From contig KZ538057.1 of the NCBI GenBank assembly GCA_000934665.2, positions 62,001 through 126,000 on the forward strand: a DNA stretch of 64,000 nt, given 5' to 3'. The notes beneath the pieces are model-generated. The model saw only the letters and a program-made list of their open reading frames with translations. It was not told where the DNA came from and searched no databases. Origin of the DNA: Catajapyx aquilonaris (lineage: Eukaryota). This document shows positions 6,255-16,933 of this stretch, piece after piece; the stretch's first letter is position 1; each line of letters begins with the position of its first letter. The translations under genes were made by a program, and so were the position numbers.

Positions 6255-6891
6255 ATGCCTTATGTAATAGTAACTGGGAATCTTGTGCCATATCCTGGGA
6301 ATAAGCCATGGCTTGTGTCAGTTGCAGGTCTCAAAGGTAAGAAGTGACACTTTACACCCATTAACTCAGTACTTTTATTAGCACTGACTTAAATTTGGTT
6401 GAAGGCCATTTTAATCACCTTTGTTAACATGGAAACTGAGTTTAATTCAGAAGTTTTGTTGAAAGGAACTCCTTAATTTACAATGTAATATTTGCCACCA
6501 ATTGTCGGTTCATCACATTCATCAAGCTTTCATTTAAATTTTGGGTTTGTTCCTTTCATTCTCAACAAAATTAATAAAACTCGTGTACGGAGAGGTGTTG
6601 GCAGTGTCTATTTTTCAAGAGTATAATTCTAGATATCTCTGAATCCCTGCCCTTTTTCCCATAGCCAAAGAGGTTGATCAGCTTCAACGCTTCAAGGGGG
6701 TGTTAAACACCCACACCCTGTCAGTGGAATTTCCTCACCACCCGTGTGTTGTGCTGAGTGCCCTAGAAGTCGTGGGTTTCAGGGTGGAGGCAGCTTGCCC
6801 AGGGGGAGCAAATTTTGCCAAAGAAGTCTCCCAGTGTGTTTGGACATTAAGAAAGGAGTTCAGTGAACCTGAACCGCTTGACGACAATTAG
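6255..6891 (+). CDS. GFRP-fold-like small protein A (102 aa)
   Basis: Exons 6255-6336 and 6665-6891, phase-1 GT-AG intron: MPYVIVTGNLVPYPGNKPWLVSVAGLKAKEVDQLQRFKGVLNTHTLSVEFPHHPCVVLSALEVVGFRVEAACPGGANFAKEVSQCVWTLRKEFSEPEPLDDN. The pattern MPY-hydrophobic...PxxVLxxLExxGFRV...VWxL recalls GTP cyclohydrolase I feedback regulatory protein. Acceptor at 6210. Confidence 0.8.
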
Positions 6892-7593
6892 GAAGAATTT
6901 TATCAGGTAGGTATTCTGAGCCAGGGTATTTTTAAAACATGGGATGTAAAAAGAAGGCAAAAAATATGTGGCATGTGCTGGTTTTTATGTTGACCTCAAA
7001 CTTTAACGTGCTGTCACATATGACTACTCCAGGGTTTTAAAAAGTAAATTACCACCACATCATTAATATGTCACTTGAACTTTTCAAGACCAGCACAGTT
7101 TACTTTAATGCATGCATTTTGTGATGTATTTTATTCAGTGTTTGGTTGCATTTTGAGTTGTGTGCTTTACAATCATTCAAACTCTTGATGAGCAATTTTT
7201 TTCCTCCTGTTTTAAATTTGTCTCAATTGTGCCAGCTGTACTTTTTACATTTACACATTGATGTTTCTTCCAACTATTGGTACCGTACCTACAATAATTT
7301 GCAGCTAGTGAACAAAAATAACAGATTTTTGCTTGACATTTGAGGAGATTCCAAGAAATCAAATCATTACACCATGCAACTAATGAAACTGAAGGCTTCT
7401 TGAGAACCATTTTATGTTTGTGCTCACAGCACACTTGTCTTTTTCCTTTTTTGTCGCTAGCGTCTGCCTGCCTGTTTGGTTGCCGCAGCCCCTCCCATCC
7501 TTTGTCTCTTATCTCACCCTCACGACATCCACACTTTCCACCACAACCTGCCACCACCCCTGATTGTGCACGTATGAGCTGCTGCGAGCAACA

Positions 7594-7943
7594 ATGCCCA
7601 CGTATGCTGTTGTGAAGGGCTCCCTGTACTCAAACGAGTGTTCGATATTTGGATTGACTACGGGTGAGGTGCAGGTGCTGGGGCAACGCTTTCCAGGGAG
7701 TGCAGAAACAGAGGTCCTCAACGGAATGTGCGTCAAAGGTATAGGCGTGAGAATGCAGTGGGAGTGAGCATGTGTGTTGTGCATGGGTGTGAGCATGAGC
7801 ATGGAGGTGGGATATAAACCTTGCTGTGCATTATTGCAGCCTCACCGGTGTCGGTACTCAACGCCCTGGCAGGAATGGGTTACAAGGTGGTGGCTGCCAC
7901 TGGCGAAGGAGAAGTCGTTTGGACCCTCCAGAGGGACAAGTAA
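7594..7943 (+). CDS. GFRP-fold-like small protein B (82 aa)
   Basis: Exons 7594-7738 and 7840-7943: MPTYAVVKGSLYSNECSIFGLTTGEVQVLGQRFPGSAETEVLNGMCVKASPVSVLNALAGMGYKVVAATGEGEVVWTLQRDK. The C-terminal half closely resembles the GFRP pattern PRIVLDKLE..GFRVLSMTGVGQTLVWCLHKE. Confidence 0.82.
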
Positions 7944-8579
7944 ATAAATCAGGTAGGACTGCTATCCATCCACGTAGGATGTAGAGCACGTTGCATATTG
8001 TGGTATAATGCCGTGTGCAGGCGATTTGGATTTTGATGCAGTGTGGGCTACTCCAGGTTGCTGTGTTGTTAATGTGAAGGATGTCTCAAAGGCAGGGAAG
8101 ACACGCCCCAGAAATAGCTTGTTTTAAGCACTGATTAGCTCAAGGAAAGAATTTTGGACATGCTCCAAGTGAAGTGAGGTCTACCCTTTGGTTGCCATTT
8201 TAGTTTCATATTAGCCCCTGAGACACCTGACAGGTAGACAGCACTTGTTAAATGGGCTGTATAAATTGTACATACTGTATTAGAAAGCACTTAGAGTGTG
8301 GTAGGTGTGCAAATATTAGGATTCTATTTTTGAATGTTAGGTGAGGCCTAGATCCATTTGGCTGTCTGTTGCCTTGCCAAAAATTTGCTCTTGAAACCTG
8401 CCTTACGTTTCCCCAACATATACTATGTAGCTTCTAAAGCCAGGTTGTGTCCATGGCCATTGCATCTGATGCGCTTCTCCAACAGTTGTGTCCACTCCTC
8501 CCCACCTGCTCGTCCGTCCAGGTGTTGTGTAACCAGTGTCCATTGAAGTTTTGGGCCTTTACGTGTGAAAAAATACGCA

Positions 8580-14464: not shown

Positions 14465-14611
14465 TTTAATGCAATAGAGGACTTGGGCTACAAGCTTCAG
14501 ACCTGCGAGGGCAGTAGCTATGGCCATGGGGGAGGGGGATCATTGCTGAACTGGACTTTTTTTAAGGCTCCTCCAGGACAGGGTGATTTCAGTAATGCGC
14601 AAGCAGCATAA
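14465..14611 (+). pseudogene. Degenerate GFRP-like C-terminal fragment F2
   Basis: FNAIEDLGYKLQTCEGSSYGHGGGGSLLNWTFFKAPPGQGDFSNAQAA*, with an in-frame TGA at 14450-14452 just upstream. It is a tandem duplicate of F1, including the downstream sequence. Confidence 0.65.
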
Positions 14612-16546
14612 TATTACTATAGGCACTTTTTATGGTGCAAAATCAGTTTGAAATGTGAATGAGAATAATAATATTTCCGGGTAGGATTTACTCTATTGAC
14701 AGTATTACCAAGCTCTTGGTATTACCATGCTTAGGTATACAATTTCACCATTCTCTGAACTATTTGAGCTCCGGTATGTTCTGGAAATGAGGCAGATGTG
14801 TGTGTGTGTTTTTTTAACGAGCTATATATATTTATTCCTACTGCCATTATGTTGCAAGGTGTATGTGCCAAAGTCGGCCAAATAAGCTGAATCAAACTCT
14901 ACCTACATGTTAACATCAGGCTATTTCGCATTGTGGTTTGATCAATCCTGCTTGTGTAGGTGACAATAAAAGTTGATATAAGCCCGAAATATTTTATTTG
15001 CACACAGGTTTTGCTGCCTTACTCTTTGCCCTTTCTTATGTTACACACTTCCTCCTCCTCCTCTCCCGTGAGCGGATGACTCAAGAATCTGTCATTGGTT
15101 CTATGACCAGCCCACATAATCCCTTGCTCTGATTAAATTCTCCCTCCTCTGACAAAAGGGTGTGTACACTGCTGCCACCTACTATGTACTCAGCAAAGTG
15201 ATTATACGACAAATAGCGAGCGGTGTCCGTACGATAATATCACGTCAGCTGTTGACTTGTCCGAGCCGATAGAGACGTGCAGGAGACATCGTCGAAGCCA
15301 GCTGGAGCTCGTTTTTGCAAGTATATATCCAGGGTAGGTGTCACGTAGGTATTGTAGTTTGGAAACGAAAGTTTTGTGATGGACAGTCGGATAAATATGA
15401 ATGGTTAAGTAATGTACATTTGTAATGTTTTGAAAGGTATATTTTGATTATTTGAAACAGGGAAGCACCAATATGATCACATATCTTGAATGAATGTGCC
15501 GAATGAATTTATTTAAGTATGTGACATGCAAAAACAATATCAACTTGAATTTAAATTGATGCAGAAGCTAATGCAACTACAGATAATTGAAGGGACTGTG
15601 GGGCAACATCAGAGCTTGAGAGACAGGTCACCCATTTGGTACCCCTTTGCATCAGAGTAAGATTGGTCTTCATACATGCATTGCAAAGATTAGTGCTGGT
15701 TCTGATAATAAAAATGACTCATGAGAAATGTCTCATCCAACAGTTTTACTGGAGGAATGTTATGGGTGAAAAGAAATAGGTACTAGGAACATGTAGGACT
15801 GATTTGATCAATGACTTGTCACGAAGTCTCTCGGCCATATGTGATTTTGCAACTTCATTCCAACTTTTAATTACTACTTTAATTAGCTTGGATTCCCCAC
15901 CCTGGCATCTTCCTGAATCACAAAAATATTTTGAAGATTATATCAGGGCCCATTTTTGTTTCAGCTGATGCAAAAGCAGAGGACATGAGTTACCAGGGGT
16001 CATTATAGCAATATATGCAGTGAAGGAAATGCAGTGTTGTGAGGGAAACTTAATTTCATGAGAGGGAAATTGCAATTATATTCACTTTGAACATTATTTT
16101 TAAGCAATCCTGAGGCTGAGGGCGTAGTCTAGTGTTCCAGGGATTTGTAGGTTTGTCCGACTCCTTCCTCCTTTCTGTTATCATCTCCCTTTTAGACTTG
16201 CTGCCATTCTATGGAGTATGTAGACCATGATTTAAGTGGTAATGTGGGCGTAAAGTTACTGGTACAACCAATTGCAGGTGGAGGTGCAAGTTGCTTGGCA
16301 GTAATAATTTATGTCCAAATATCCGTACTTTCTTAGATTTTACAGATATGACTTGAAATCTTCTCATGATTGGTTATAGCAGGAACTTCTGCCTCTCACT
16401 TCCTCTGTAAGGCCCCATATGCTATTCCAGTTAACTTTTACAGTGCTCTAGCTTGTTATGGGTTGTCTAATGCAAGTATCAGGTATAGTTTCAGTGAAAG
16501 AATGAACAATATAAACAGGTTGCAATAATTTTTCAGATTCTGCACC

Positions 16547-16933
16547 ATGCCATACGTTGTGATTGAGAGGAAATATCGTCCCAGCCTTGTCAGCTCTGAC
16601 TGTAAACAAATTGTTGAAGGTTTGAACGAGGCAGAGACAGAGATTCTCATTAAGTACATGCGTGGATGGAGAATACACTCTCGTCAGATTCTGCGAACTG
16701 TGTTTGAAGGGGAGTTCAAGGTGTATCCCACTGCAGTCCTCCTCAATGCTCTGGAACTTATGGGCTACAAGCTGCAGTCATGTGGAGGGAGCCCTATTGA
16801 AGACTCTGGAAGTGGAGCATCTGTGTTTTGGACCATGTGGAAACCTCTTCCACAATACACAGGAGCAGATGGGCCATCAGATCCTTCAGCCCCCCCACCA
16901 TATGATGTTGCTTGCACTGTCCGCAACAGATAA
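16547..16933 (+). CDS. GFRP-fold-like small protein E with PSAPPPY tail (128 aa)
   Basis: MPYVVIERK...VEGLNEAE...YPTAVLLNALELMGYKLQSCGG...VFWTMWKP...PSAPPPYDVAC. Acceptor at 16536, Kozak-like CACCATG, and a candidate non-coding first exon ending at a GTAGGT donor near 15333. Confidence 0.82.
   Translation: MPYVVIERKYRPSLVSSDCKQIVEGLNEAETEILIKYMRGWRIHSRQILRTVFEGEFKVYPTAVLLNALELMGYKLQSCGGSPIEDSGSGASVFWTMWKPLPQYTGADGPSDPSAPPPYDVACTVRNR

Follow-up and report, generated by a model that had tools for sequence, protein, structure and literature searches.

A candidate family of small GFRP-fold proteins and its link to ANKRD39 in Catajapyx aquilonaris

Introduction

A 64,000-nucleotide stretch of the genome of Catajapyx aquilonaris (NCBI GenBank assembly GCA_000934665.2, contig KZ538057.1, positions 62,001 to 126,000 of the forward strand; hereafter the window) contains five intact open reading frames (ORFs), g1 to g5, whose products resemble GFRP, the feedback regulatory protein of GTP cyclohydrolase I. 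Exons of three of these ORFs (g1, g2 and g3) are joined in spliced contigs to one another and to a gene resembling ANKRD39, and database proteins of true bugs and psyllids combine a g2-type domain and ANKRD39 in one reading frame. The reading that we favor, with a probability of about one half, is that the five ORFs belong to an arthropod-wide family of GFRP-fold proteins that would assemble as five-membered rings and act with ANKRD39 rather than with GTP cyclohydrolase I. What is new here is the link to ANKRD39 and the joining of the transcripts, the family members themselves being already present in databases. A search of the literature outside subscription journals and supplements found, as judged by titles and abstracts, no paper on this GFRP-like family or on its ANKRD39 link, and among the papers listed for ANKRD39, judged by titles and the beginnings of abstracts, there was none on the function of this protein or on arthropods.

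The Proposed g1-g2-g3-ANKRD39 Transcripts

The stretch is eukaryotic; it has 39-47% G+C and contains spliced genes. Evidence for transcription comes from contigs of one public run that are at least 99% identical to the window. The kind of this run is not on record, and it is taken to be RNA-derived on the sole ground that its contigs carry eight GT..AG joints. The introns of g1 and g2 are both of the GT..AG type, lie in phase 1 and are confirmed by spliced contigs (Table 1). One contig of 634 bases (6664-6904, 7459-7736 and 7838-7952) includes both g1 exon 2, stop codon and all, and the whole of g2, and the joint 6906/7461 (positions on either side of the splice) connects g1 exon 2 to g2 exon 1. 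From there two routes are used, since g2 exon 2 is joined alternatively to the g3 exon (7952/8486) or to exon 1 of the ANKRD39-like gene (7952/9735). The g3 exon is in turn joined to ANKRD39 exon 1 (8869/9735) from inside the last codon of g3, and the spliced form of g3 has three extra codons and a stop at 9745-9747. Finally, the joint 9912/10109 connects the two ANKRD39-like exons, the first of which contains the motif QTLDELDFERGIWSA, conserved across the ANKRD39 alignment, and the second of which matches ankyrin families in Pfam (Ank_4, 8e-36; Ank_2, 1.6e-32). These splice joins go beyond an earlier note on this DNA, in which ANKRD39 figured only as a trial partner.

The transcripts also reach upstream of g1. 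Twenty-nine contig letters before 6664 that were left unplaced have a unique match in the window at 2866-2894, and the splice from this upstream exon to g1 exon 2 skips g1 exon 1. No ATG occurs in any frame of g1 exon 2. Once the exons are spliced as modeled, successive ORFs are separated by 148, 103 and 59 bases, which hold one ATG in total, at 7574, which opens a 13-codon, out-of-frame upstream ORF, MSCCEQQCPRMLL (7574-7615), overlapping the g2 start. The 1168 bases that follow the g1 start and reach to that of ANKRD39 contain 9 ATGs, as compared with 17.7 in shuffled sequences (P 0.01), a depletion that is absent in ANKRD39 (18 vs 8), g4 and g5. The ANKRD39 frame is open from 9735 to its ATG at 9807, and therefore fusion in frame would result from any exon upstream that ends in phase 0; g3, which ends in phase 2, misses the ANKRD39 frame. 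No Rfam family was found at gathering score in 2000-18000, and thus the exon structure is not explained by a known snoRNA or miRNA. That g1 to g3 form one multi-ORF transcription unit with ANKRD39, and not separate genes, is part of the favored reading and shares its roughly even odds. A separate contig covers g4.

At about 1.7 kb from the unit's upstream non-coding exon (in the region 2740-2895, + strand) lies a TCTP exon on the opposite strand (789-1142, - strand; Pfam 6e-32). The TCTP gene and the g1-g2-g3-ANKRD39 unit may share a divergent promoter region.

Table 1. Coordinates of the features discussed (window positions, except for the last row, which gives positions in the metagenome contig L002)
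Feature	Position	Strand	Remarks
Upstream non-coding exon, 3' end	2866..2895	+	Joined to g1 exon 2; GT donor after 2895
g1	6255-6336 + 6665-6891	+	Intact ORF, 102 amino acids, one intron
g1 exon 1, coding	6255..6336	+	27 codons + 1 base; joint 6336/6665 in spliced contig
g1 exon 2	6665..6906	+	Stop 6889-6891; splice donor 15 bases past stop
g2	7594-7738 + 7840-7943	+	Intact ORF, 82 amino acids, one intron
g2 exon 1	7461..7738	+	ATG 7594
g2 exon 2	7840..7952	+	Stop 7941-7943; donor 9 bases past stop
g3	ORF 8580-8873, exon 8486..8873	+	Intact, 97 amino acids; ATG 8580; donor after 8869
ANKRD39-like exon 1	9735..9912	+	ATG 9807; splice acceptor for g2 exon 2 and g3
ANKRD39-like exon 2	10109..10557	+	Stop 10504-10506; ankyrin repeats; contig to 10557
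g4	12178-12438	+	Single-exon ORF, 86 amino acids; contig spans 12268-12737
Fragment A	~13596-13700	+	Resembles C-terminal third of the family (..ESLGY..WTF..)
Fragment B	~14465-14611	+	Duplicate of fragment A
g5 non-coding 5' exon, 3' end	15280..15333	+	Joint 15333/16537, GT..AG, shorter side 77 letters
g5	ORF 16547-16933, exon 16537..17079 including 3' untranslated region	+	128 amino acids; contig spans 16536-17079
g3-type ORFs of L002	419-715 and 1428-1730	same strand	Differ from each other; 712 bases apart

Homology to GFRP and Predicted Fold

The five ORFs lie on the same strand at 6255-16933 and encode proteins of 82-128 amino acids, with limits and lengths that agree with those given in the earlier note. 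The motifs listed there, MP(Y/F/TY), GL, P...L..L...G(Y/F).(V/L) and WT(L/M), are all present in the five proteins; the spacing of the P...L..L...G motif is less regular than had been claimed, with one-residue indels in g3, g4 and g5. When the five proteins are compared with the 64-kb window by tblastn, seven of the ten ORF pairs match at E < 0.05 (g2-g4 9e-9, g3-g5 1e-5, g2-g3 6e-4, g1-g2 8e-4, g1-g3 1e-3, g1-g5 2e-3 and g2-g5 0.017). This search gave no significant match for the pairs g1-g4, g3-g4 and g4-g5, so that g4 is tied to the other four through g2 alone. At the level of sequence, the likeness among the five ORFs exceeds chance. The sites of the two introns differ in the protein alignment, that of g1 lying after the GL motif and that of g2 before the second helix.

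The only Pfam family matched by these proteins is PF06399, with 33.2 bits for g2 exon 2, 21.3 for g3, 20.0 for g1 exon 2 and 14.1 for g5, g1 and g2 being scored exon by exon. The gathering cut-off of this family (25 bits) is reached by one of the five (g2), and four of the five match at any score; Pfam gave no PF06399 match for g4 and no match at all for the N-terminal exon of either g1 or g2 taken alone. A BTB domain was not matched by Pfam in any of the five ORFs, and the GFRP-like domain makes up the whole of each protein. Other comparisons include g4 as well. When group profiles were compared with the profile of six proteins, all of which match PF06399, the probability was 97.9% for the g4 group (E 4e-13) and 98.1% for the g3 group (E 9e-14), and a search of the PDB with a profile of the window copies returned GFRP chains as its top four entries, aligned end to end (E 0.031-0.11). 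Across the family, PF06399 is the only Pfam family for 50 of 83 members at E <= 1e-3. As judged from these profiles, the window proteins are homologous to GFRP.

AlphaFold models of g3 and g4 have mean confidence values (pLDDT, predicted local distance difference test) of 92.9 and 88.6, respectively, and both show the order strand-strand-helix-strand-helix-strand-strand. The closest folds to the g3 model are the H1 domain of KCTD8 (Z 9.8), the Trypanosoma cruzi protein Q4D6Q6 (9.6), KCTD1 (9.4) and KCTD12 (9.1), followed by GFRP with Z 8.3, a root-mean-square deviation (rmsd) of 2.5 A over 72 of 85 residues and 21% identity; the best unrelated fold has a Z of 5.2. The g4 model matches GFRP best (Z 9.8, with an rmsd of 2.0 A over 76 of 85 residues and 24-25% identity), with KCTD domains at up to Z 8.0 and unrelated folds at 5.0 or below. 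In the models, therefore, the GFRP fold holds for g3 and g4, the two members modeled. The profile and structure searches have thus returned the GFRP and KCTD likeness that the earlier note had anticipated (PF06399, GFRP, KCTD), and its proposal of a fold shared by GFRP and the KCTD C-terminal domains is upheld by models that match GFRP and KCTD1, KCTD8, KCTD12 and KCTD16 at Z 8-10 (7.3-8.0 for g4 against KCTD), as compared with about 5 for unrelated folds. Its view that none of the five is an orthodox GFRP also stands, because the canonical N-terminal loop (..ST....GPT.VGD) is absent from all five window proteins. This loop is present in the listed proteins P0149 and P0169 and in the human chain; in the window proteins its site holds h.GL(P/K/T/N), the.GL of which is nearly invariant in the whole family. 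Judging by this difference the five proteins are not canonical GFRP. The canonical loop is presumably the site at which GFRP contacts enzyme and ligand, and its loss therefore argues against a GTP cyclohydrolase I contact of the classical kind.

A pseudogene reading of the five ORFs was considered and rejected, as their frames are intact and spliced contigs cover parts of all five; the cross-species groups found for g1, g2 and g4 (see below) are a further reason. The window contains in addition two C-terminal fragments that the earlier note did not report (fragments A and B; Table 1). They are 81% identical over 102 bases, their 3' flanks are alike too, and a search for an N-terminal exon found none for either. 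The bins 12878-15047 have zero contig cover in the run, from which no conclusion follows for the two fragments; these may represent either duplicates in decay or last exons that are used alternatively.

Relatives in Other Arthropods

Searching 1.84 billion representative proteins with a profile yielded 203 relatives at E <= 1e-3, 49 of them at E <= 1e-10. Four of the 150 listed (P0053, P0120, P0130 and P0152) appear to be chance matches of repeat proteins that contain a ..WTLE.. motif and were excluded from the alignments. Of 30 clusters looked up, 11 bear an organism name, and all 11 names are those of arthropods: ants, Aquatica, Timema, Cimex, Lygus, Apolygus, Halyomorpha and Nezara, Cacopsylla and the ostracod Darwinula, together with the tick Hyalomma and the centipede Strigamia, whose proteins are GFRP of the canonical type. 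Relatives were also found in Stomoxys, Diaphorina and Trypoxylus. Matches resembling g3 come from environmental assemblies only; a word search with g3 by itself returned no homologue, whereas a query with the alignment succeeded. The 2,084-base metagenome contig L002, which comes from another organism, has a tandem pair of g3-type ORFs on one strand (Table 1), and a search with the single protein P0105 returned two short contigs. Database labels for family members are either uncharacterized or an automatic GFRP name (e.g., in Nezara and Aquatica), and a table of PMC3611593, in the part available, likewise lists Anopheles AGAP009206 under an automatic GFRP name.

A FastTree phylogeny of 125 domains resolves four groups with support of just 81-89. 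When the window's sequences are kept out of the group profiles, g1 scores 107.6 bits on its own group and 28.1 on the next, g2 104.1 and 51.7, and g4 78.3 and 41.7, respectively. Three of the five window proteins thus have a clear cross-species group, and therefore their duplications are old and the copies have been retained, as the earlier note had suspected from the divergence of the five ORFs.

The association with ANKRD39 recurs in several of these species. Cacopsylla has an in-frame fusion of a g2-type domain with ANKRD39, a protein of 253 amino acids (A0A8D8RFM0 in Cacopsylla melanoneura) that occurs beside a form of 160 amino acids, and the same two modules are joined, likewise in frame, in a hypothetical protein of 254 amino acids of Diaphorina citri, in RefSeq isoforms of 388-464 amino acids of Cimex lectularius (XP_024080694/XP_014253396) and in a protein of 506 amino acids of Lygus hesperus (A0A0A9YBW2). 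Further combinations are found in gene models: the second half of a g2-type domain joined to ANKRD39 in Trypoxylus, two g4-type domains joined to ANKRD39 in Darwinula, the g1, g2 and g4 types joined in that order in Timema, and the g1 and g2 types joined in ants and Aquatica.

Proposed Mechanism and Alternative Explanations

On the favored reading, the five ORFs would be expressed members of an unstudied family of small GFRP-fold proteins. The exons of g1 to g3 appear joined to one another and to ANKRD39, and a splice donor coincides with or closely follows the end of every upstream ORF. Observed here are the ORFs, the two predicted folds, the joints, the relatives and the fusions; ring assembly, a partnership with ANKRD39 and the mode of ORF translation are inferred. 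Analogy with all the solved proteins related in fold makes five-membered rings the most likely assembly of the window proteins; GFRP and the C-terminal domain of KCTD1 share the same fold and the same closed pentamer, with KCTD12 a close match, and rings of five are proposed because these fold relatives form closed pentamers (PMC7618933, in the part available). Such rings would act with ANKRD39 as its scaffold or regulator, ANKRD39 being the probable partner, or at least a member of the same pathway, because of the co-transcription and the fusions. In the g2-type/ANKRD39 fusions of true bugs and psyllids, a ring would carry five ankyrin modules, a build similar to that of KCTD proteins. Use of one 5' exon or another, together with the skipping of exons, would change the ORF that comes first and in this way probably determine the one to be translated, and a second control probably operates through leaky scanning or re-initiation over the short, ATG-poor spacers.

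Several observations weigh against this reading. The ATG depletion is modest, concerns one locus and was tested post hoc. The g2-g3, g2-ANKRD39 and g3-ANKRD39 joints have just 27-30 letters on their shorter side, below the tool minimum of 31, and contigs from a run of unrecorded kind cannot prove that all ORFs reside on one molecule. Moreover, g4 and g5 lie outside the g1-g2-g3-ANKRD39 unit, g3 is weakly placed among the groups (46.5 vs 41.0 bits) and g5 is unplaced (42.7 bits on the g1 group, 30.3 on the g3 group). A GFRP-like N-terminus is found in only 3 of 120 listed ANKRD39 relatives across animals, and the merged proteins of Timema, Darwinula, Aquatica and Trypoxylus and the ant entry in MetaClust may be gene-model artefacts, in which case they are evidence only of adjacency on the same strand.

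The most direct alternative is that the window proteins are arthropod regulators of GTP cyclohydrolase I, diverged paralogues that still dock onto the enzyme, perhaps with other ligands, and that the ANKRD39 link is incidental. The homology to GFRP in sequence profile and fold fits this explanation, as does the position of g3 and g5 beside the canonical GFRP clade in the tree, at a weak support of 81, and databases automatically name some members GFRP (Nezara, Aquatica and Anopheles AGAP009206, the last in the available part of PMC3611593). However, the GPT.VGD loop is replaced in all five by the family-wide.GL motif, linkage and fusions point to ANKRD39, and the canonical PF06399 proteins of Hyalomma and Strigamia form a separate clade, so that we regard this alternative as rather unlikely. 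A different possibility, raised in the earlier note, retains the rings and alters their composition: the clustered paralogues would form mixed, hetero-pentameric rings, with co-transcription supplying the subunits together. Here the presence of g1, g2 and g3 in common spliced transcripts, which would bring about co-expression, the pentamers of the fold relatives (PMC7618933, in the part available) and the two tandem g3-type ORFs in a second organism (L002) speak in favor. This proposal is nevertheless unlikely, since the solved relatives form rings with one kind of subunit, to the extent that the available part of PMC7618933 says so, true bugs and psyllids fuse the g2 type alone to ANKRD39, g4 and g5 are transcribed apart, and pairs that are only 25-35% identical need not share interfaces.

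A bolder version, distinctly unlikely in our view, is that of an operon-like conserved gene encoding up to three paralogous ring subunits together with their client ANKRD39, with mixed rings in fixed proportions. In that case, 5' exon choice, exon skipping and leaky scanning would set the mix of subunits, and the bug and psyllid fusions would be a hard-wired version of the same complex. At the opposite extreme, the upstream ORFs could be long upstream ORFs serving mainly as translational brakes on ANKRD39, their peptides being irrelevant. Their location 5' in ANKRD39 transcripts, with short spacers between them, fits this explanation, but the proteins are conserved across orders (g1, g2 and g4 at 78-108 bits on their own groups vs 28-52 on the next), both modeled members, g3 and g4, have confident GFRP-like folds, and in some species the domain is fused in frame to ANKRD39; a role as mere brakes is thus very improbable. 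The reading of GFRP-fold rings that act with ANKRD39 is the one retained here. The proposed ties to ANKRD39, to GTP cyclohydrolase I and among the paralogues are all open to co-purification.

The significance of these proteins is threefold. Arthropods, including the fly Stomoxys, possess several old groups of GFRP-fold proteins that are at present labeled uncharacterized or automatically named GFRP; the repeated linkage and fusion provide a first testable functional lead for ANKRD39; and the locus is a candidate for a conserved multi-ORF gene in animals.

Comparison with Known Systems

With GFRP the window proteins share a similar size, the same order of strands and helices, an MPY start, the helix-strand stretch L..LE..GY.V and a WT.. 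end. They differ from it in having the.GL motif in place of the canonical N-terminal loop and in being encoded by multi-copy genes linked to ANKRD39, with only g2 reaching the Pfam cut-off. The likeness to the C-terminal or H1 domains of KCTD proteins is one of fold, with Z 8.4-9.8 for g3 and 7.3-8.0 for g4 against the structures of KCTD1 (6S4L, 9FOI), KCTD8 (6G57), KCTD12 (6QZL, 6M8S) and KCTD16 (6QB7). These domains are ring-forming modules that bind partners (PMC7618933, in the part available), and the bug and psyllid fusions resemble the KCTD architecture of ring domain, linker and partner-binding domain. In contrast to KCTD proteins, the window proteins lack a BTB domain, are only 10-18% identical and have no Pfam KCTD match, the sole lead at sequence level being an Atlas cluster (score 0.87) with PF23110 on 13% of its members.

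A stand-alone small protein with the same fold is the kinetoplastid-specific Q4D6Q6 of T. cruzi (6XYB, 6XYD), the best Foldseek match for g3 (E 5e-4; Z 9.6). It differs in belonging to another kingdom-level lineage and in its low identity (16-18%), and we know of no link between it and ANKRD39. The g2-type/ANKRD39 fusions of Cimex, Lygus, Cacopsylla and Diaphorina contain the same modules in the same order as g2 followed by ANKRD39 in the window; whereas the modules of the fusions share one frame and are bridged by linkers that range from a few residues to about 300, the window ORFs are separated by stop codons.

Eukaryotic genes that are di- or polycistronic include Drosophila dicistronic genes, tarsal-less/polished rice and MOCS1. 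As in these genes, several non-overlapping ORFs with short spacers would lie on spliced transcripts in the window. The window unit differs from them in that it may hold up to four ORFs, three of them paralogous.

Other Features of the Window

Beyond the five ORFs, the region 20000-22000 is an island of 63% G+C in which both strands have long open frames that overlap. The longest of them (20888-21946, 352 amino acids) has no Pfam match; the island may represent a gene's first exon or else low-complexity sequence. Near the end of the window, on the - strand, there are an exon resembling a DHHC palmitoyltransferase at 55763-56146, at 26 bits and thus below the cut-off, a long ORF resembling a membrane protein at 59559-60500, with no Pfam match, and an esterase exon at 61417-61839 (4e-18).

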